From contig CAZUKY010000001.1 of the NCBI GenBank assembly GCA_964621085.1, positions 22,951 to 86,950 on the forward strand: a DNA stretch of 64,000 bases. Direction: 5' to 3'. Both the position numbers and the translations under genes were made by a program. The stretch's first letter is position 1. Each line of letters opens with the position of its first letter. Origin of the DNA: an uncultured Gammaproteobacteria bacterium. GTDB lineage: Bacteria; Patescibacteriota; Patescibacteriia; JACQRZ01. This document shows positions 23,825 to 34,414 of this stretch, in pieces. The notes beneath the pieces were generated by a model, which made no database searches, was not told the origin of the DNA, and saw nothing but the letters and a program-made list of their open reading frames with translations.

Positions 23825-25624
23825 ATGAAGCTGGAACACTTTATTTGCTCGCACGATCCCAAACATCCGGATCAACTCACCTGTCGGGAGGATCCGAGCG
23901 GTGCATCCCGCCCGCTTTTTACATTAAGCAAATTCCATAAATTTTTTGATGCGCGGTTTGCGCGCCACTATCACCCAAGCCGCAAACATGCGCGACTGCA
24001 TCTTCTCGTCGATGCGCTGCTCGGCGCAAGCGTGATCGCCCTTCTCTTCTTTGCGATCATCGGCCTTGGACGCGCACTCGATTTTTTTTCGCCCCTGAGC
24101 GTTGCCGCCGAAAAAGATATCCAGCTTTTTTCGGCCGTTCCAAATACAGTCTCTGTCACCGTCTCGTCGAGATCGCAGGGCATTGACGGCATGACGATTC
24201 ATATCGTTGCGCCGCGCGACGTCGATGTGATGCGCATTGACGGAAAACCATACGACTTCCACGCGCCCCTTGCTCTCGATGGCCTTGCGCCGGGCCAGCA
24301 GCGGGCGATTCCGCTGACGCTCCGTCCGCTCGGAAAAATGGGAAGCAGCGGTGAGTTGCGCGCGCTTGTGCGCGGCATCGACAAGGATGGCCGCACGGTC
24401 GCAAAAGACATTGCTATTCCCTTCTCGGTTTCCCGAACACCGGTCGAACTTTCGATAGAGATTCCAAACTCGGCCGTTGCGGGACAGGCGGTTGCCGCAG
24501 ATATTTTTGCGATAAATCAAACAATGGAGGTGATTCCCTCGATACGCCTTGAGGTTCAGGGATCGGATGGAAAAAAGATTGAAACAAGGGCGCTTTCCGA
24601 TATTCAGCCCGGTGAGCGAACGAAGATATCCGTCACTCTTCCGCCTGGCGACGCGCCAAAGAGCGGTATCCGCGTAGCCGCATTTCTTTCATACAAGGGG
24701 TTCGATTTTCCTCTTGGCACAAAGGAAAGAAACATCGCCGTTGCGGCACCTGAATTACAGGTACAGATTTCAACTGCAGTGAAAACAGCTACGCCGGGCG
24801 AGAGCGTGCCGCTGACACTCGCACTTTCAGCATCCCGTCCGCTTGCACACGTGCGTACGCACCTTCGCGTCGAGGGACCTTTCAAAACAAATGCGCCGCT
24901 GGTATCCGGAGACGGACGGCTGGTTTCCGAGCAGGAAATGATGTGGCAGTTCGATACGCTTTCGGACTCTCACCGCCGTACAGCGACTGTGCGCATTCCG
25001 CGAGATATCGAAAATCCTTCCGAATCTGATTCGAGTGACGTGTATGAGATTCGTATAACCCCACGCGGGTCATACGACGATGGCACCGGACAGCGAATAG
25101 AGGTAACTGGCCAGGTCATACGCATTCCGCTCTCTTCTCCGATTGAGCTGTCCGCATCGGCCCGTTATTTTTCCCCGGAGGGCGAGCAACTTGGTCGCGG
25201 CCCGCTGCCCCCGCGTATCGGAAGCGCGACACGCTATCTGGTTTTTATCTCTCCGCGTGGAAATTTTCACCCAGTAAATGAGGTTTCCGGCGCAGCGCAG
25301 CTCGGAGACAATGTCGCGTGGACCGGCAAAGTCCTGAGCGGAGCGGAGTACCTGTCCTATGACGAAAAAAAGAAAGTTGTCAGCTGGAACTTCGGCTCGC
25401 TTCCGCCATACAACACGCAAAACGGGACCGTCGGTGCAATTTTCGAGCTCTCGTTGACGCCAAACGCAGAGGATTTCGGTACCGAGCCGATTCTCCTGCG
25501 CACTCCCTCGCTGTCCGCAGTTGACGCAGTAACCGGCAAGAAAAACGAGTACGCCCACCAGACACTGACAACACGCCTCACCAACGACACTCAAGCAGCA
25601 GAAAAATCCCGCGTTGTGCGGTAG
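23825..25624 (+). CDS. Hypothetical membrane-anchored surface protein with beta-rich repeat domains
   Basis: 599 aa with an N-terminal TM helix. Repetitive Ig-like / CARDB-like sequence character; no catalytic motif. Confidence 0.45.
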   Translation: MKLEHFICSHDPKHPDQLTCREDPSGASRPLFTLSKFHKFFDARFARHYHPSRKHARLHLLVDALLGASVIALLFFAIIGLGRALDFFSPLSVAAEKDIQLFSAVPNTVSVTVSSRSQGIDGMTIHIVAPRDVDVMRIDGKPYDFHAPLALDGLAPGQQRAIPLTLRPLGKMGSSGELRALVRGIDKDGRTVAKDIAIPFSVSRTPVELSIEIPNSAVAGQAVAADIFAINQTMEVIPSIRLEVQGSDGKKIETRALSDIQPGERTKISVTLPPGDAPKSGIRVAAFLSYKGFDFPLGTKERNIAVAAPELQVQISTAVKTATPGESVPLTLALSASRPLAHVRTHLRVEGPFKTNAPLVSGDGRLVSEQEMMWQFDTLSDSHRRTATVRIPRDIENPSESDSSDVYEIRITPRGSYDDGTGQRIEVTGQVIRIPLSSPIELSASARYFSPEGEQLGRGPLPPRIGSATRYLVFISPRGNFHPVNEVSGAAQLGDNVAWTGKVLSGAEYLSYDEKKKVVSWNFGSLPPYNTQNGTVGAIFELSLTPNAEDFGTEPILLRTPSLSAVDAVTGKKNEYAHQTLTTRLTNDTQAAEKSRVVR

Positions 25625-25651
25625 GAATGTAATCCATTATTACAATCCCTC

Positions 25652-26047
25652 CTAACTCTTTATATTTTGGAGAATTTCCTTCAGTTGATTTGGATTTCTT
25701 TTAATATCCACTTGAATGAATTTATCCACACAGCCATAGTGAATCAATTCATTCATCTCTGCCGTAAGGAGGATATCATCTATCCAGCGAAAGTCCTTTG
25801 TGAAGTCGATCACTTCAGTCTTGAGAGATCGCCAATACGTGGGCCTTATTCTCTGGAGAAGGTTTTCAGTCTCAGGCGGCAGTATGCGTAGCAGGTATTC
25901 AGTAGCTCTATTCTCTCCACCTCGAGAGTGAGTCGTCAGCCAATAGCAGTCGTAATGAGCTGTGACTTCTTCCAAAAATTCGATTGCATGTGCAGTAGGT
26001 CGGCCATGAGTAACCAGTACGCCGTCAATGTCGAGATAGATGTTCAT
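25652..26047 (-). CDS. HAD-superfamily small phosphatase-like protein (5'(3')-deoxyribonucleotidase / PNK-phosphatase-like)
   Basis: Motif I YLDIDGVL, motif II WLTTHS, motif IV RWIDDIL. Confidence 0.5.
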   Translation of the reverse strand: MNIYLDIDGVLVTHGRPTAHAIEFLEEVTAHYDCYWLTTHSRGGENRATEYLLRILPPETENLLQRIRPTYWRSLKTEVIDFTKDFRWIDDILLTAEMNELIHYGCVDKFIQVDIKRNPNQLKEILQNIKS

Positions 26048-26101
26048 GTCTAAGATGCAAATCAAATCTTCTTCCTCAGAATTTCAGTAACACGAAATGC
26101 T

Positions 26102-26371
26102 TCATATCCGCTTGATAATACGCTGCCTTTTTAATTCATCAGTAAGACGCATTGCCCTCGCATACCCAATCTTGAATTTCCTTTGAATCCAATTAGAATC
26201 GACTTTTTTAACTTTTCCACCTACTACATCCTCCTTAATCCTGCGGATCAAGTATGGAAATTCATAACTGTCGCGAAGTGCTTCTATCTTCAAAGTTAGT
26301 TCCTTCATGTTACCCTCCGCACTCTTAAGAAGAGCAATAAGCTCCCTCGTAGTTTTATCGGAGTTATTCAT
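26102..26371 (-). CDS. Small protein with an FtsK-gamma-like winged-helix DNA-binding domain
   Basis: C-terminal IQRKFKIGYARAMRLTDELKRQRII closely parallels the FtsK gamma consensus LQRRLRIGYNRAARLIEQME. Start taken at MNNSD, 10 nt after the res C-terminal ORF stop. Confidence 0.5.
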   Translation of the reverse strand: MNNSDKTTRELIALLKSAEGNMKELTLKIEALRDSYEFPYLIRRIKEDVVGGKVKKVDSNWIQRKFKIGYARAMRLTDELKRQRIIKRI

Positions 26372-26381
26372 ATAAATACAT

Positions 26382-27023
26382 TTAACCAGAATAGACACTA
26401 GTAGCAATTTCGGTTTCGAAAACTCTTACAACTTCTGCAAAAGATTTTACCTTGTACTTCTCCCAATCTTCCTGTCGGATATAGAGCGCGTTATATGTCA
26501 TCCTGCCTTGCCTATTGTTCACGTCATCGCACCATTGCTTGAGCCGTTCAAATTTTAATCGATCATCCTCCTCCTCGCGCCCTTTTGTCTCGACAATATA
26601 AACCGTCTTGTCATCCGTTTTCACAAAAAAGTCGGGATAATATGTTGCGATAAATCCTTCAGAATTCTTATACTCAATTCTCAACGCGCTTGCCTCTTTG
26701 TTTTGGAAATTCTTTGAGAAGGAAACGACATCTTGCTCGTCACAACTCTCGAGGAAGCTTGCGAATTCAAGCTCGAAATCGCTATCTCCGACAATCTTAT
26801 TGAATACTGATTTTTTTGGGATAACGCATGCTTTATCATTGACTACAAATGGTCGAGCGTCACTGACTTTGATGAAATTCCTGATTTCGGTATCGCCTTT
26901 ATCCTGCACCGTAAGATCGTTAATAGCTTTCTTAAACGACTCCCTGATAAGCCGCACGTATTCGGGCTCTGAAAGATTCCGTAAAATGTTCAGGTCTGAA
27001 AGATCCACTTGCCCCTCAAACAT
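26382..27023 (-). CDS. res: Type III Res C-terminal PD-(D/E)xK endonuclease domain ORF, in frame with res and separated from it by a TGA
   Basis: YYPDFF...VYIVETKG matches the PD...ExK nuclease motif. The reading frame continues without interruption from the stop of the upstream helicase ORF (19 sense codons, then ATG). Confidence 0.6.
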   Translation of the reverse strand: MFEGQVDLSDLNILRNLSEPEYVRLIRESFKKAINDLTVQDKGDTEIRNFIKVSDARPFVVNDKACVIPKKSVFNKIVGDSDFELEFASFLESCDEQDVVSFSKNFQNKEASALRIEYKNSEGFIATYYPDFFVKTDDKTVYIVETKGREEEDDRLKFERLKQWCDDVNNRQGRMTYNALYIRQEDWEKYKVKSFAEVVRVFETEIATSVYSG

Positions 27024-27080
27024 ATAACTCTGTATAAACTCTTTTACCTTGCCAAAAAGAATGTCATAGCATCCGAATAA

Positions 27081-29102
27081 TCAAAGCTCGCGCATGATCG
27101 CCTGAACAAAAAAGCCAATTGCACTCTGATGATTTGGTTCTATATCGCCAGTTAAAATTGTCGTATGGTGAGTTTTCTCATCCACGACATCTTTGAAAAC
27201 AATTTCTCGCTTCTCTGTTGCGGTAAATGTTTTTATATTGACTCTCTTATTCCTAAATGATGCAACATCGAGCTCTGAGAGATTTTTATATTCTCTCTGA
27301 ATGCGGGGCGACATGACAGGCACCTCGATATCCAGCTTTTCAATATCTTTCTTAGGGTTATCTCTATCCACCTCAACCACGAGCGGGGCGATCGGCTTTG
27401 AGCCATGACCCATCGCCTTCTTCTCAAGAATAACGCCTTCGCCCTTGATCGATTCCACAAAATCCATGAATGCCTGCGTTCCCAAAACGCTGACATATTC
27501 TTGAACGTCTTCTCGCCCGAAGAACATTCTTCGCAAGCCCCGCCCAAGGGTCTGTTCGGGTAAAATCTTCGAGTCAGCGGCAAAGGGACGAAGACCAACA
27601 ATAGTGGTCACGTTTTTCACATCCCAGCCCTCTTTGAGCATAAGAACGGAGACAATCACCTTGTAGGGACTTTCCCAACTATCGATATCATTTGCTTGTT
27701 TTCTCAGTAGTGCGAGCTCTTCTTTATTCTTCCCCGTCACGCTTTCAGATATCTCACCGCTTCTATTGGTATGAATCGTCAAAACACTGCCTTTCAAATC
27801 AGCAAAAGTATTTTCAATATATTGGGCAACCTCATCACAGTTCTTCGTATCATCGGTCATGATGAAAAGAATCGACTTCTTGCCCATTGTCCTCAATGTC
27901 TCGAACGTTTTTCTCCACTCCTCTATACCAAGGTTAATGTAGTCCCTGTAGCGTTCACTAAAAAGCGCGCTCTGGTTTTCTTTGAGCTTTCCCTGACTCG
28001 CTGCATCGGGTACGACCGGATTTTTTACTATTCTCTGGTGGATCGCTTCGACAAGAGGATAATCCGAAATCGTCTGCACAAAAATTGAGCCGTCATTCTT
28101 CTTTGGCGTAGCAGTAACGTCCAACTGTAAGGCCAATCCAGAGCCTTTCTGCTTGAGCCGGTTGTCGATGTCTTGAATAGACTTAAACCATGCCATCTTT
28201 TCATCATGCAGATGATGGGCCTCATCATTGATTACTATCAATTCGTCTATATCTCGCACTATCGAGCCTAAATCTAGCGTTGAATCATTTGTCTTTGTGA
28301 CAGGCTTGTTGCCGAGAAAATATGCGGTCGTATCCTTGTCTTCATAACTTGCTTCTTTGACATCTCCCTCAAAAACTCGATGAATATTGGTCAAAAAAAT
28401 ATTTCCTGTTTCTGAGATATTGTGTAAGTCATCCTGCAGGTGCAGTGTTATTTGAAAATCGTCCTGCCAGTTTTGTCCTTGGTAACCGTTATCCGGTAAG
28501 ACGGGATCGTTGAAAAATATTTTCAATCCTTCAAAGTCATTTTTTATTCTGTCAAAAACAATCACGTTGGGCGCAATCAGGAGAAAGTTTTTTGCAAGTC
28601 CTGAATCCTCTTCGAATTTTTTATGGAAGTATGCCCATGCGACAAGAAGGCTCATGACCTTTGTTTTGCCTGCACCGGTTGCCATCTTAATGACAAAGCG
28701 TAGCCATTCTTCAGTGAACATCTGAGGACTCAACACGCCCGTTGAGTTGTAACGAATGAGGTCGTACTTATCCTTTACCTCTGCAACGTCATAGAGCCAG
28801 ACAACTGTTTCCAAAGCTTCTCTTTGGGCAAAGTAGTACCGAAAATTAAATGACGTGCCATCTTGGTTGTATTGGATATGATCTTCCTTGAACCACCAAT
28901 TTAGCAGTGCCTTTGATGTACCGCTTGCTCCCTCATAGTTTTTATCACGCCATTCTTTTACTCGTTTGCGCAGGTCGGCGACTAATGGAGGGAGTAACTT
29001 ATCGTAGCCCTTCTCACGCAGGTCCTCATCAGCAGGAAACCACCTGATACTTGGATCAAGAATTTCATAGGGATCTTTTGGGAAGTCTTTATGTAGAGCC
29101 AT
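27081..29102 (-). CDS. res: Type III restriction enzyme Res subunit, SF2 helicase/ATPase portion
   Basis: Walker A ATGAGKT, DEAHH box, and motif VI QTLGRGLR. Located downstream of a Type III mod gene. Ends in TGA at 27081-27083. Confidence 0.8.
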   Translation of the reverse strand: MALHKDFPKDPYEILDPSIRWFPADEDLREKGYDKLLPPLVADLRKRVKEWRDKNYEGASGTSKALLNWWFKEDHIQYNQDGTSFNFRYYFAQREALETVVWLYDVAEVKDKYDLIRYNSTGVLSPQMFTEEWLRFVIKMATGAGKTKVMSLLVAWAYFHKKFEEDSGLAKNFLLIAPNVIVFDRIKNDFEGLKIFFNDPVLPDNGYQGQNWQDDFQITLHLQDDLHNISETGNIFLTNIHRVFEGDVKEASYEDKDTTAYFLGNKPVTKTNDSTLDLGSIVRDIDELIVINDEAHHLHDEKMAWFKSIQDIDNRLKQKGSGLALQLDVTATPKKNDGSIFVQTISDYPLVEAIHQRIVKNPVVPDAASQGKLKENQSALFSERYRDYINLGIEEWRKTFETLRTMGKKSILFIMTDDTKNCDEVAQYIENTFADLKGSVLTIHTNRSGEISESVTGKNKEELALLRKQANDIDSWESPYKVIVSVLMLKEGWDVKNVTTIVGLRPFAADSKILPEQTLGRGLRRMFFGREDVQEYVSVLGTQAFMDFVESIKGEGVILEKKAMGHGSKPIAPLVVEVDRDNPKKDIEKLDIEVPVMSPRIQREYKNLSELDVASFRNKRVNIKTFTATEKREIVFKDVVDEKTHHTTILTGDIEPNHQSAIGFFVQAIMREL

Positions 29103-29835
29103 ATATCTTTTTATGAATGGAGTTTATAAAGCAAGATCCAATTTCTAGTATATTTCTAGTATATTTAACCATATCTTGCGCGGTTCTCTGTCGTCTTTTT
29201 TTCTGACCACCTAAACTTGCGTCCATCTCATGAATAATCTCGTTCCGAACATCGAACGCTTTTTTAGTAACCTCGGACTCTTTCAGGATCTCCGCCGGAG
29301 TAATAGCAAAATTTGTAGCAACTTTTAATAACTGATCGCGGGATTGCAGACTATCGTCTACTAAACTTTTTTTTAGGGCATCTATAAGATAATCTCTGGG
29401 ACTTGAGCTCGCTAAAATGGAGGCAACCCACGTTGTGTCAATTAGTAATTTTTCCTTTTCGTCAGAGCTTCCTTTTTTCATTCTTCGATCTATGAATTTT
29501 TGAAACTCTTGTTGTGCGCCGGCCTCTTTATCGATAACTGTCGAGAGAGAATCCTTAACAAGTTGTTTTACAACCGAGTCTAACCCGGAGCATGAAAAAA
29601 CCAACATAGCACGCAAAAGGTCCTGCTCCGCATGTGTTGTGCTCCCCTTACTACCCCTTCTATTTGCTTGGAATAATTTATAGAACTCATTTACTGAATT
29701 AATGGCATGCTCAAAAACTATTTTTGCATTTTTTATTTCACGGAAATCTCCAGAAATAAGTTCTGTTACCTTAATTTCTTTAAATTCTTTTTTTGACATA
29801 TCGGGATCACTAACTGTCTTGTTCAATATCAACAT
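29089..29835 (-). CDS. Hypothetical alpha-helical protein with an RNxxxH motif (candidate HEPN-like domain)
   Basis: VRNEIIHE near the C-terminal third matches the HEPN Rx4-6H (RNxxxH) signature. Overlaps the res start by 14 nt and the upstream small gene. Assignment is by motif only. Confidence 0.4.
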   Translation of the reverse strand: MLILNKTVSDPDMSKKEFKEIKVTELISGDFREIKNAKIVFEHAINSVNEFYKLFQANRRGSKGSTTHAEQDLLRAMLVFSCSGLDSVVKQLVKDSLSTVIDKEAGAQQEFQKFIDRRMKKGSSDEKEKLLIDTTWVASILASSSPRDYLIDALKKSLVDDSLQSRDQLLKVATNFAITPAEILKESEVTKKAFDVRNEIIHEMDASLGGQKKRRQRTAQDMVKYTRNILEIGSCFINSIHKKIYGST

Positions 29836-30127
29836 CAGTAAACCCTAGTGGTAGTGGTGAGTATCCGGCATGACCCGGATAGCCAGGATAACCCGGATAG
29901 CCAGGATAACCCGGATAGCCAGGATAACCCTTGTAGGGATTATAATGCTTCTTATACAGGCGATTGTTCGTGAAAATATGTCCTAAATAATTACCGTTAG
30001 TATCGACAACTTCAAAGGAATCCCAGGGTAGCCAACCAATCCAACTCCCATTTGTATTATAAACATATCTTCCTACTCGGAAGGCAATCCACTCGCCTGA
30101 AGAATTATAAAGATATTGAAAATTCAT
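29810..30127 (-). CDS. Small protein with an N-terminal aromatic/Trp-rich repeat (YxYNxxGxWIxx) and a C-terminal (GYP)n tail
   Basis: 105 aa. The GYPGYPGYPGYPGYPG tail is encoded by the 18-bp tandem repeat. The start ATG overlaps the mod stop (TAATG), implying translational coupling. Confidence 0.45.
   Translation of the reverse strand: MNFQYLYNSSGEWIAFRVGRYVYNTNGSWIGWLPWDSFEVVDTNGNYLGHIFTNNRLYKKHYNPYKGYPGYPGYPGYPGYPGYPGHAGYSPLPLGFTDVDIEQDS
29873..29930. repeat. Tandem repeat, 18-bp unit ACCCGGATAGCCAGGATA x3.2, in frame within the small GYP gene
   Basis: Three perfect copies plus a partial one, read directly in the sequence. Confidence 0.85.
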
Positions 30128-32211
30128 TATACAAGCACGTCTATTACCTTTGTTGTATCATTGCCGAAGATATCTACCACCTTCACGGCAACTTTATAGG
30201 CTCCTTTTGATACCTCTTTTGCTGCAGATACAAGCTCAAGGTTTCTATTTTTCTTTGTTCGGAAGCTTTGCCACTCGTTATCAAAGATATAATCACCCGT
30301 CCAAATCTCTTTCTCTTCATCACCGTCTATAATTTTGATGATCTCTTTTCTATCAGCAAAGTTAAAATCTACCGCCCAATAGTCAATCCAATCGCTCCAT
30401 TTCTTTGTAAGTATCTCCGGCTCGCCTATGGTGCCGTCCTTGTTCTTTGATATTTTTTTAACCTGTCCATTCTCAATAATAATTTTTGACCCACCAGACT
30501 TTAATGATTCTTGTATCTCTCCTGAGTCGTCTTGGCTGTAAAAAACCGAAAAATCTGTTAACTCGATGGCTAATTCTTTACTACCTGCCCGACCCTTGAT
30601 AATTGGCTTCGCCTCGATGAATGCCACGTCATAAAATTTGACTTGGCCTTTTTCTACGGCTTTTCTGTCAAACACTTCTCTTGGGATTACGCGGAAAGCA
30701 ATGTCGATTCCTCGCTTTTGGTAGCTTCCGAAATCTATACCCATTTCATAATCAAAACCGAGCACATCAACTTTTGTAATGCCTTTTTCTTTGCATTCGG
30801 TCGCAACTTCCTCGATAAATTTGGAGGATACTGGGAGATTGATTGGACCAACTACAACCAAGCGATCTCGTTTTTTACCGACAACATTTACAAACGAGTC
30901 GACACGCTCTGCTTTATACGCTGAAAGAATAAGATCTACATATTCTTTTTCTTTTCTCTCTGCCTGTTTTGCTCGTTCTTCTGCTCGCAGATCACTATTT
31001 AGCGTAAGAAAGTTTTCTCGCTCATAGCGACCAACATTCAATACCTCAAAAGCACGGAAATTTTGCCCAGACTTCTTTAGCTCGCGCTGAACACCAACCA
31101 TTCGTTTTCGCGTTGTATGTATAGAAAACTTTCCCAGATCGGACCCGATCCATTTTCTACCAAGCTTTTCGGCAACAGCAAGAGTTGTGCCAGAACCACA
31201 AAAAAAATCTGCAACTAAATCACCTTCATTTGAAGATGCCTTAATAACACGTTCAAGTAACGCCTCGGGCTTTTGAGTCGGATAATCAACTCTTTCCCTT
31301 GAATCGGATTCAGTGCCTAGTCCATACACATCATCCCAAACATCGCGACAAATTGAATTGTGGTACCACATTTTCTTTTCCTCATCCCAAATTTCAGGAT
31401 ATTTCTCATTGAAATTGTATTTCTTTGCCTGGTAGGACTTGTAGTATTGAGTATTGAATGAAAAATCTGAGGTTCTCGAATAAAAAAATATGGCGTCATG
31501 CTTTCTGGCAAAGAATCCTTTGCTTACTCCACCCGTTTTATAGCTCCAAATTATTTCATTTTTAAAATTATCTTTACCAAAAATTTCATCTAGCGCTAAT
31601 CTAAGGTAACCACTTACGCGATAATCGCAGTGAACATAGATACTGCCATCCTCTGCCAACAATCCATGCATTAGCTTTAGTCGTTCATAGATCATAGCGA
31701 TAAAGCTATCTGCCCCTTTTCCCCATGTATCTCTATAGGCTATTTCTTCAATCACTGACGGCTTCTTAGTAAAACTCTCCGCGTCATCGCCGTCGCCAAT
31801 TTTTATATCCATCGAAAAATCCGCTCCGACGTCAAAAGGAGGGTCGATATAAATCAATTTTAAACCGCCCTGCGCTTCGATTTCCTTTCGCAAAGGACCA
31901 TTTTTCAGTGATGAGAGTATTAGCTTATTGTCGCCCCAGATGAGCTTATTCGTCCACCCAGTTATTTGTCGGCCCGAGGTATCAAAAAGTGTATTTTGTC
32001 TGCCGATTTTTCCATCGCCTCGTGGCTCGTCTATTTGCTCAATCACCTGGAATGGCAAGACAACGTTTGTAACTTCATTTGTTTTTCCATTCCAGACAAG
32101 CTCTACCTCTCGATCGTCACCGAACAATAAAAAGCGATATTTATCTGGAAGTGGCTTACCCACCTCAAGATATCTAATAACATCTCGTTTTTCATTATCA
32201 GTTAGATACAT
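30127..32211 (-). CDS. mod: Type III R-M Mod subunit (beta-class N6-adenine DNA methyltransferase)
   Basis: Motif [13 protein letters not shown] precedes motif [10 protein letters not shown] (a beta-class permutation). A central variable region is present. 694 aa, with a res gene downstream. Confidence 0.85.
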
Positions 32212-32246
32212 AATTATCCTTATTTGAGCTTTGGTAATTTTCCTTT

Positions 32247-32275
32247 ATTTTAGAAGACTTTTTAACAGTAAGCAA
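32247..32275 (-). promoter_or_regulatory. Candidate promoter of the mod operon (TTGCTT, 17-nt spacer, TAAAAT on the minus strand)
   Basis: -35/-10-like elements with a 17-nt spacer, about 35 nt upstream of the mod ATG, which has an AAGGA SD. Confidence 0.35.
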
Positions 32276-32365
32276 GTGCTTGCAATGACTCAAACATACA
32301 ATACTGAAGGCGGCTAAAAGCCTTGCGGAATACCGCGCCGTGCGGTATACTTATGGTGTCTGTGA

Positions 32366-34414
<2,049 letters not shown>

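Follow-up and report, generated by a model that had tools for sequence, protein, structure and literature searches.

The res gene of a cassette for type III restriction and modification (R-M) in an uncultured member of the Patescibacteria is divided by a single in-frame TGA codon, which raises the question of whether this codon is a lesion, a recoded position, the boundary between two functional polypeptides or a sequence error. The explanation considered probable here is that one nonsense substitution has affected the res gene of a horizontally acquired cassette, which would have lost DNA cleavage, kept its methyltransferase Mod and entered decay.

The cassette and the interrupted res frame

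Within the window (the whole 64,000-nucleotide stretch of DNA that was analysed), the cassette forms an operon on the minus strand in the order mod, Bflower gene, HEPN gene and res, with overlapping stop and start codons. The first gene, mod (30127..32211, minus strand), encodes an apparently intact type III DNA methyltransferase of 694 aa that matches the Pfam family N6_N4_Mtase (PF01555; E = 7e-45) and the PADLOC model MTase_III (E = 2.7e-112). For most relatives, the alignment of their Mod with it covers residues 1-694. Its DPPF motif (residue 123) precedes FCGSG (residue 337), the beta-class order in which motif IV comes before motif I and the region for target recognition lies in between. 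Two cargo genes follow on the same strand: a 105-aa Bflower-family protein (29810..30127; PF21784, E = 1.3e-8), whose gene start overlaps the mod stop, and a 248-aa HEPN (RiboL-PSP) protein (29089..29835; PF18735, E = 4.4e-7), whose gene end overlaps the res start. The mod-res order recurs in 121 relatives, and both cargo genes are absent at 80 related genome loci.

The whole cassette, together with two small ORFs (25652..26065 and 26102..26407), lies in an island of low GC content (25650..32300, approximately 41% GC) bordered by gyrB (32375..34414) and a 599-aa ORF (23825..25624). GC content is 50-59% in the island flanks, 52.4% across the window and 52-56% in the chromosome. Judged by the neighbours of its GyrB, the host chromosome appears to be that of an Uhrbacteria-like member of the Patescibacteria, which probably acquired the cassette by horizontal transfer.

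The 5' ORF of res (27081..29102, minus strand) opens at ATG 29102 and comprises 673 codons followed by the TGA (27081..27083). The frame is kept through 19 sense codons, LFGCYDILFGKVKEFIQSY (27024..27080, minus strand), none of which is ATG, GTG or TTG, and enters the 3' ORF (26382..27023, minus strand), which begins at ATG 27023, spans 213 codons and closes with TAA at 26384..26382. The coordinates and frame given by the first-pass annotation, including the placement of the PD...ExK motif in the second ORF, are thus reproduced. The upstream ORF corresponds to the SF2 helicase/ATPase part of Res (Pfam ResIII, E = 4e-17; PADLOC REase_III, E = 2e-19) and carries the Walker A motif ATGAGKT (residues 141-147; 28662-28682), the DEAH motif NDEAHH (residues 292-297; 28212-28229) and motif VI QTLGRGLR (residues 517-524; 27531-27554). 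The downstream ORF carries the PD-(D/E)xK nuclease module, with the PD motif YYPDFF at residues 821-826 of the fused Res (26625-26642) and the ExK motif VETKG at residues 837-841 (26580-26594), both invariant among Res homologues.

For the nuclease piece, Pfam RE_endonuc scores 22.5 bits, just short of its cut-off (23.4 bits), and TnsA-like N also falls below its cut-off. An AF2 model of the 232-residue C-terminal piece has a pLDDT of 61 overall and is confident only in the nuclease core (approximately 80); the leading Foldseek matches of this model in the PDB are all PD-(D/E)xK nucleases, albeit weak ones (best E 0.007, none <= 0.001). PDB sequence and profile searches returned no match, and a whole-protein AF2 model of the Res homologue P0001, built from a 44-sequence alignment, has a mean pLDDT of 41, which makes it unusable for locating residue 674. 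The quality of both models is too low to reveal the packing of the missing part.

The two pieces belong together at the family level. NCBIfam NF046055, a single-protein model of 970 positions named BPTD_3080 family restriction endonuclease, is the best curated match and is hit by both pieces in consecutive parts and in the right order, by the N-terminal piece at model positions 69-398 (E = 6e-63, 213.2 bits) and by the C-terminal piece at 764-947 (E = 6e-17, 60.8 bits), scores that lie far below the 800-bit equivalog cut-off and mark a related family of which this Res is no member. Over its entire length, the fused translation matches Res proteins of approximately 895 aa, thousands in number, at 81-85% identity. 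Since both halves match one family model and these full-length proteins, the downstream continuation is no chance ORF. The first-pass annotation had placed the TGA between the helicase and nuclease domains; the domain coordinates bear this out, but the site is no loose linker, as the stop breaks an invariant motif of 20 residues, MRELRLFGCYDILFGKVKEF (27036..27095, minus strand), defined by column counts in homologues.

The stop position in relatives and in a second assembly

Frame and homologue alignment place the premature TGA where Res homologues carry an invariant arginine, Arg674. The comparison with orthologous genes that the first-pass annotation had proposed yields a sense codon throughout, with Arg in 120/120 close Res homologues and likewise in 75/75 species genomes. 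All six Arg codons are represented in the latter (AGA 16, AGG 15, CGT 15, CGA 12, CGG 11 and CGC 6), and 28 of the 75 genomes use CGA or AGA, each one substitution away from TGA. It is from CGA or AGA that the stop would have arisen, by a C-to-T or an A-to-T change of the invariant codon at 27083, where the plus strand has A and the gene's sense strand T. The 19 residues after the stop are also invariant or nearly so among homologues. The res gene is uninterrupted in 128 of 129 full-gene loci, the sole internal stop being that of this strain's own contig, and metagenome contigs scanned with a degenerate DNA query contained 97 res family members with CGA or AGA at the position and none with TGA. 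A natural two-protein architecture, which had been raised as a possible account of the locus, finds no counterpart, given that 0 of the 128 other full-length loci are split.

Whether the TGA exists in the organism at all is a separate matter. It has been considered that the codon is an artefact of sequencing or assembly, or that the consensus has captured a minority variant, and that the true population has an Arg codon and an intact res. The contig is metagenome-assembled and was examined as a consensus sequence, a single sample is on record for the strain, and the two available assemblies disagree in at least one further base, with a one-residue difference in a PBP gene in another part of the window. 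Against this, the identical TGA occurs in the separately built Logan assembly of SRR5011273, in which a 34.6-kb contig runs through the site and is 100% identical to the NCBI record over 12.8 kb, an agreement between two consensus sequences that were possibly built from one read set. The change is, moreover, no homopolymer indel but a substitution outside repetitive sequence, and among 5.8 billion protein clusters there is no near-identical intact allele, the closest Res homologue having 85% identity. The sequencing error suggested at the outset is thus weakened by the second assembly and by the nature of the change, and an artefact is regarded as improbable.

No trace of relaxed constraint was detected in the post-stop segment, either as substitutions or in the divergence ratio. 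Near-invariant columns deviate at 3/363 positions in the N-terminal half and 1/97 in the C-terminal half, values that fall inside the spread seen for intact homologues, and the C/N divergence ratio of 1.41 compares with 1.31 +/- 0.14 in homologues. The lack of extra damage in either half points to a young lesion, and the mutation is accordingly taken to be recent. Together with the invariant Arg, the single polypeptide at 128/128 other loci and an intact Mod, this supports the recent nonsense mutation with lost cleavage and retained methylation that had been listed among the initial explanations.

Decoding of the TGA and translation of the 3' ORF

Some lineages of Patescibacteria (Gracilibacteria and Absconditabacteria) reassign UGA, and the reading frame of res is kept across the TGA. 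It could accordingly be proposed that the codon is read through or decoded as part of a programme that yields small, regulated amounts of full-length Res. Within the window, TGA ends 16 of 53 long non-overlapping ORFs, and profile matches extend to the ends of the proteins concerned: the PGK profile is covered at positions 1-379 of 379 by residues 6-409 of the 421-residue pgk product, and the match to an ABC-2 permease reaches residue 265 of 266. The LysRS gene also ends in TGA. The earlier statement that TGA acts as a bona fide stop elsewhere, made from pgk, is thereby extended to a larger set of genes. An Rfam search found no RNA family and no SECIS element, and the RNA fold around the res stop is no better than that of shuffled sequence (z = 0.05). 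No tRNA genes occur within the window. The base 3' of the TGA is U, and UGA followed by U is an efficient termination context in E. coli. Relatives carry Arg at the site and never Gly, Trp, Cys or Sec, so that the position resembles neither a Sec codon nor a sense UGA of genetic codes 4 or 25. With no recoding signal, Arg in all relatives and a TGA that does not recur, the suggestion of programmed read-through is set aside, and recoding is rated as extremely unlikely.

Separate translation of the nuclease piece offers another way of rescuing function. Initiation or reinitiation at ATG 27023 would produce a 213-aa nuclease subunit able to rejoin the 673-aa helicase piece and Mod as a functional split Res. 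The downstream ORF is intact, retains the catalytic PD...ExK and shows no excess of substitutions, although the absence of decay is equally expected if the mutation is young. Neither a promoter nor a Shine-Dalgarno motif suggestive of an evolved restart was found at ATG 27023, a search of low power for the latter because such motifs are rare throughout the window. Since most genes in the window are without a Shine-Dalgarno motif, in keeping with its rare use in the genome, its absence is no bar to separate translation, and the sequence before ATG 27023 is A/T-rich. On the other hand, this ATG encodes a conserved internal Met, present at that column in 101/120 homologues, and the product would be without Arg674 and the 19 invariant or near-invariant residues beginning LFGCYDILFGKVKEF. 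No relative is split. Taken together, these observations make a functional split Res very unlikely.

Homologues of 202-370 aa were evaluated as natural stand-alone nucleases starting at the stop site (MGGHD...) and were rejected. Their starts concentrate where the full protein has an internal Met, the pattern that contig-edge fragments would produce. At L179 and L182/L183, the frame runs upstream to approximately residue 599, and a GTG, encoding the Val in ...ELRLVGGHD..., had been called as the start; what remains at these loci is the 3' part of deleted res genes, with the Arg still present. A further candidate, L187, contains two frameshifts. The short homologues, being contig-edge fragments or remnants of this kind, add nothing in favour of a separately made nuclease subunit.

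Loss of restriction and comparison with known systems

If the TGA is a simple nonsense mutation, translation of Res would end after residue 673, keeping the SF2 ATPase/helicase part and omitting the last approximately 220 residues, the PD-(D/E)xK catalytic core included. A Res product without this core would be unable to cleave DNA, and restriction is thus predicted to be lost at the locus. Type III Mod methylates without Res, and methylation by the intact Mod presumably continues. As Mod is independent of Res, the locus would now be methyltransferase-only and heading to decay, and methylation without cleavage is the likely state of the cassette as judged from its sequence. It has also been contemplated that the stop serves a purpose, either by attenuating restriction while a new cassette settles in an unmethylated genome, with low-level cleavage from reinitiation at ATG 27023 or rare near-cognate read-through, or by leaving a helicase-only Res that, with Mod, has the HEPN and Bflower cargo as partners in place of its own nuclease; such a role is rated as very unlikely.

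For annotation, res would be appropriately described as a pseudogene, or as one disrupted gene present in two parts, beside an intact mod, rather than two genes, a recoded gene or a split architecture. The methylation motif of Mod in the organism would then be expected to occur with no restriction alongside, and because methylation without restriction is predicted, the HEPN and Bflower genes should not be presumed to be partners of an active nuclease.

Among R-M systems, type III is the classic case of phase variation (PMC1976455), and the locus had initially been described as phase-off or decaying. In H. influenzae and Neisseria, frameshifts truncate Res so that the endonuclease domain is gone while mod is kept (PMC1976455, Fox et al. 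2007). The Patescibacteria cassette resembles these in a premature res stop that takes away the C-terminal endonuclease and in the retained helicase and Mod, and the interpretation reached there, restriction lost and methylation kept, is the same as that adopted here. Loss of res with retention of mod is thus an ordinary, already documented route of decay. The two cases differ in that the Haemophilus and Neisseria lesions are frameshifts or deletions, common to many strains and linked to a mod that is phase-variable through a repeat tract, whereas res is affected here by a single nonsense substitution in one genome, next to a mod that has no repeat tract.

This difference bears on whether restriction at the locus might be reversibly switched OFF, as in a phasevarion. 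An apparently inactivated res and a retained mod are features that it shares with phasevarions, but a repeat tract in mod is missing: between 26382 and 32300, no tandem repeats of 2-6 nt units in at least five copies were found, the only simple runs being T8 in mod and A8 in the HEPN gene. Known switching operates through mod repeat tracts and not through a res Arg codon (PMC1976455), and the lesion is a point substitution. In the absence of a simple-sequence repeat, reversible switching is not suggested; decaying is a better word than phase-off, and a phase-variable state is hardly credible. The decaying cassette, carried by an ultrasmall bacterium that is uncultivated, would represent a further case in which restriction is the first activity that an R-M system loses, an order attributed to the loss of Res being harmless while that of Mod would be harmful.

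In its general organisation, the cassette conforms to the type III R-M systems EcoP15I and EcoP1I (Mod2Res), with a beta-class PF01555 Mod, a Res that combines SF2 helicase motifs with a C-terminal PD-(D/E)xK nuclease, and mod placed upstream of res on one strand. It departs from type III architecture in that helicase and nuclease are not on one Res polypeptide, since the TGA separates the two. Similarity to EcoP15I and EcoP1I is weak (PRK15483, E = 7e-5 over 67 residues), and the Patescibacteria cassette differs from them in having two cargo genes between mod and res and an interrupted Res. The closest affiliation is with a Patescibacteria-wide family of Res proteins of approximately 895 aa, represented by P0001 from Candidatus Moranbacteria (annotated as type III restriction endonuclease subunit R); alignments with this family span 99% of the length with 81-85% identity, and the adjoining mod is the same. 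All other full-length members of this family that were examined are encoded by one ORF with Arg at position 674.

Reading frame of the interrupted res gene and its form in relatives

The res gene of the type III R-M (restriction-modification) cassette lies on the minus strand and contains one in-frame TGA. Its 5' open reading frame (ORF) runs from ATG 29102 to the TGA at 27083..27081 (673 codons), the same frame continues through 19 sense codons (27080..27024), and a 3' ORF of 213 codons extends from ATG 27023 to TAA 26384..26382, as the first-pass annotation had described. The SF2 helicase motifs ATGAGKT, NDEAHH and QTLGRGLR lie in the upstream ORF, for which Pfam ResIII (E = 4e-17) and PADLOC REase_III both give matches. 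The downstream ORF carries the nuclease motif YYPDFF...VETKG, with only sub-threshold matches to the RE_endonuc and TnsA-like nuclease models. NF046055, a single-protein NCBIfam model of 970 positions, is covered in order by the upstream (69-398) and downstream (764-947) ORFs. Judged by sequence comparison, the stretch past the TGA is homologous coding sequence and not a chance ORF.

The fused translation aligns over 99% of its own length with thousands of Res proteins, which are 892-914 aa long and 81-85% identical to it, the named ones all from Patescibacteria. In an alignment of the best 120 homologues, the stop column is Arg in 120/120, and the surrounding motif, MRELRLFGCYDILFGKVKEF, is invariant or nearly so. 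Helicase and nuclease parts lie exactly one codon apart, in one frame, in all 80 loci taken from genomes of different GTDB species. At the 75 loci with a readable motif, the stop-site codon is AGA (16), AGG (15), CGT (15), CGA (12), CGG (11) or CGC (6); a fixed amino acid with free synonymous variation indicates strong selection for Arg, and a single substitution would turn 28 of these 75 codons into TGA. Of 178 loci, the 129 that span the full gene include 128 without interruption, the sole internal stop being on the own contig of the window's strain. Five apparent stops at residue 898 were rejected as lesions, being natural gene ends. A degenerate DNA pattern of the motif in which TGA replaces the Arg codon has no match in the metagenome collection, compared with 97 stretches for CGA/AGA. 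Given these counts, the split is neither the architecture of the family nor a recurrent event. A young nonsense mutation is the most likely cause of the interruption in this res gene, which belongs to an acquired type III R-M cassette; artefactual assembly, a two-piece Res that still works, read-through and phase variation share the remaining confidence.

Read-through, two polypeptides or assembly error

Recoding of the UGA, including the programmed read-through raised in the first-pass annotation, is not supported, as relatives have Arg at the site rather than Gly, Trp, Cys or Sec, and TGA is a normal stop in this genome. It ends 16 of 53 long non-overlapping ORFs in the window, and Pfam matches reach to within a few residues of it in pgk and the ABC-2 permease, LysRS and PBP genes, which bears out the earlier remark, made for pgk, that TGA is a bona fide stop elsewhere. 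No Rfam match lies near the res TGA, the surrounding 121 nt have no stronger fold than shuffled sequence (z = 0.05), and the window holds no tRNA gene.

Constraint was compared on both sides of the stop at columns at least 99% conserved. The N-terminal part deviates at 3 of 363 (Y163F, E184D and P405T) and the C-terminal part at 1 of 97 (Y743F); 14 and 34 of the 120 intact homologues, respectively, deviate as often or more. Dividing C-part by N-part divergence gives 1.41, against 1.31 +/- 0.14 in the homologues, and 27 of the 120 lie higher. Neither measure gives any sign of relaxed constraint past the stop. A recent mutation would fit this lack of decay, and so would a C-terminal piece still in use, namely a functional two-piece Res whose nuclease piece starts at ATG 27023. 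The latter takes a share of the remaining confidence; however, that ATG is a conserved internal Met (101/120 homologues), with no in-frame ATG, GTG or TTG between it and the TGA, and a product begun there would be missing Arg674 together with 19 highly conserved residues. No Shine-Dalgarno (SD) motif or promoter-like site precedes this ATG, a weak argument as most window genes also lack an SD. An SD-like match (4-6 nt, within 25 nt upstream) occurs at only about a quarter of 39 window gene starts, and the organism seems to start translation largely without SD motifs.

At no locus does a stand-alone helicase gene precede a stand-alone nuclease gene. The 213-aa ORF as a query retrieves many proteins of 142-371 aa, rejected as stand-alone nucleases: their lengths cluster at internal Met positions and they lie mostly on 1-3 kb contigs, which marks them as edge fragments. 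Homologues on long contigs whose apparent start (MGGHD...) falls immediately past the stop site proved to be 3' remnants of res; upstream of the called start, a GTG for Val, their frame stays open to about residue 599 and includes the Arg (...ELRLVGGHD...). With the other full-gene loci uninterrupted and the short homologues so explained, the suggestion of a natural two-polypeptide Res is not supported.

A base-call or assembly error is less likely. The sequence at the site is non-repetitive and the change a substitution, and the Logan contig, an independent assembly of run SRR5011273, matches the window at 100% identity across 12.8 kb, TGA included. The exact 673-aa and 213-aa products are recorded in both that assembly and the NCBI contig (239.6 kb). 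A one-residue difference between the two in a PBP gene, at another place in the window, shows that they are not copies of one file. No intact near-identical res allele was found in the protein collection, where the best match is 85% identical. Sequencing error, as proposed earlier, is weakened by this agreement but keeps some probability, since both assemblies may derive from one library.

Predicted consequence for restriction and methylation

In type III enzymes Mod methylates alone, and Res cuts only with its C-terminal PD-(D/E)xK domain. With the ATPase but not the nuclease, the 673-aa product should be unable to cleave. Mod (30127..32211) aligns end to end with the Mod of relatives, has DPPF preceding FCGSG, and matches PADLOC MTase_III (2.7e-112); as it is full length with its motifs, methylation should continue. 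The earlier proposal of a recent nonsense mutation that abolishes cleavage and spares Mod methylation is supported by the invariant Arg site, the lack of decay and the intact Mod. Loss of Res is harmless to a methylated genome, and decay of R-M systems usually begins there.

Truncation of Res ahead of the endonuclease domain, with mod kept, has been described in H. influenzae strains and Neisseria (PMC1976455). These cases resemble the window in losing the endonuclease domain and retaining mod, but their lesions are frameshifts tied to a phase-variable mod, whereas that of the window is a substitution. No repeat tract was found at the window R-M locus, so "phase-off", as the system had been called, is the wrong term, and phase variation of restriction holds only part of the remaining confidence. 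The res lesion is ordinary, one more instance of an already known kind of event.

Other res copies and the genomic setting

Damaged res copies occur elsewhere at low frequency. They include locus L063, frameshifted near residue 350 on a contig of low coverage; L073:61-66, with an in-frame stop (fused residue 701) roughly 60 nt from the end of its contig; L170, with many stops in all frames; L187:1-300, where two frameshifts fall within about 150 nt around the conserved motif that holds the window's stop; and protein P0337, with an apparent internal deletion joining residue ~32 to ~560. Remnants of the res 3' end, covering only residues about 599-895 (L179:5815-6663, L182:5770-6654, L183 and L180:2691-3344), stand alone among housekeeping genes, near ribosomal protein operons, recA or rplS; L182/L183 and L180/L181 each come from two independent samples. 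Such remnants may be long-lived relics or a co-opted nuclease module. In three assemblies (L184:5923-9852, L185 and L186), a separate gene for a 283-aa protein homologous to Res residues ~585-892 lies immediately upstream of genes for an N6_N4 methyltransferase (308-328 aa) and a DUF87 (HerA-like) ATPase (659 aa), by its gene content a different architecture reusing the Res nuclease module.

The window also encodes DnaE, GatB, ThrRS, LysRS and PBP2, which identifies it as chromosomal DNA. A sharply bounded island of about 41% GC (~25650..32300; flanks 50-59%, window 52.4%) points to a fairly recent horizontal acquisition of the R-M cassette. It contains the cassette and two small ORFs, one a 101-aa ORF with an FtsK-gamma winged-helix match (26102..26407) overlapping the res end by 26 nt, and abuts the gyrB start at 32375.

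The mod-res gap is a variable cargo slot, 4-13 nt long in 41 of 121 loci and holding a 425-2390 nt insert in the other 80, with none intermediate. Inserted genes (L002-L178) are highly diverse and all on the same strand: OLD-like AAA_15+TOPRIM (11 loci), NYN (11), Schlafen AlbA_2+HATPase_c_4 (9), KTSC (6), DUF4145 (4), Fic (3), DUF3800 (3), small membrane or coiled-coil proteins, and 34 singletons. The window's pair, Bflower and HEPN RiboL-PSP (29089..30127), occurs in none of the 80 loci from GTDB species genomes.

Across distant Patescibacteria classes (Saccharibacteria, Paceibacteria, Moranbacteria, Andersenbacteria and others), Res keeps 81-85% identity. For GyrB (32375..34414), which adjoins mod, the best named relatives come from Candidatus Uhrbacteria and other Patescibacteria (71-80% identity), and no non-self relative exceeds 80%; conservation of the restriction enzyme thus surpasses that of a core housekeeping protein, which implies wide horizontal spread, very strong constraint, or both. 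Several close GyrB homologues (P0145, P0147, P0150, P0156 and others) are about 1100 aa long with an extra PF14890 domain, presumably intein-splicing, and the window GyrB is 679 aa without it.
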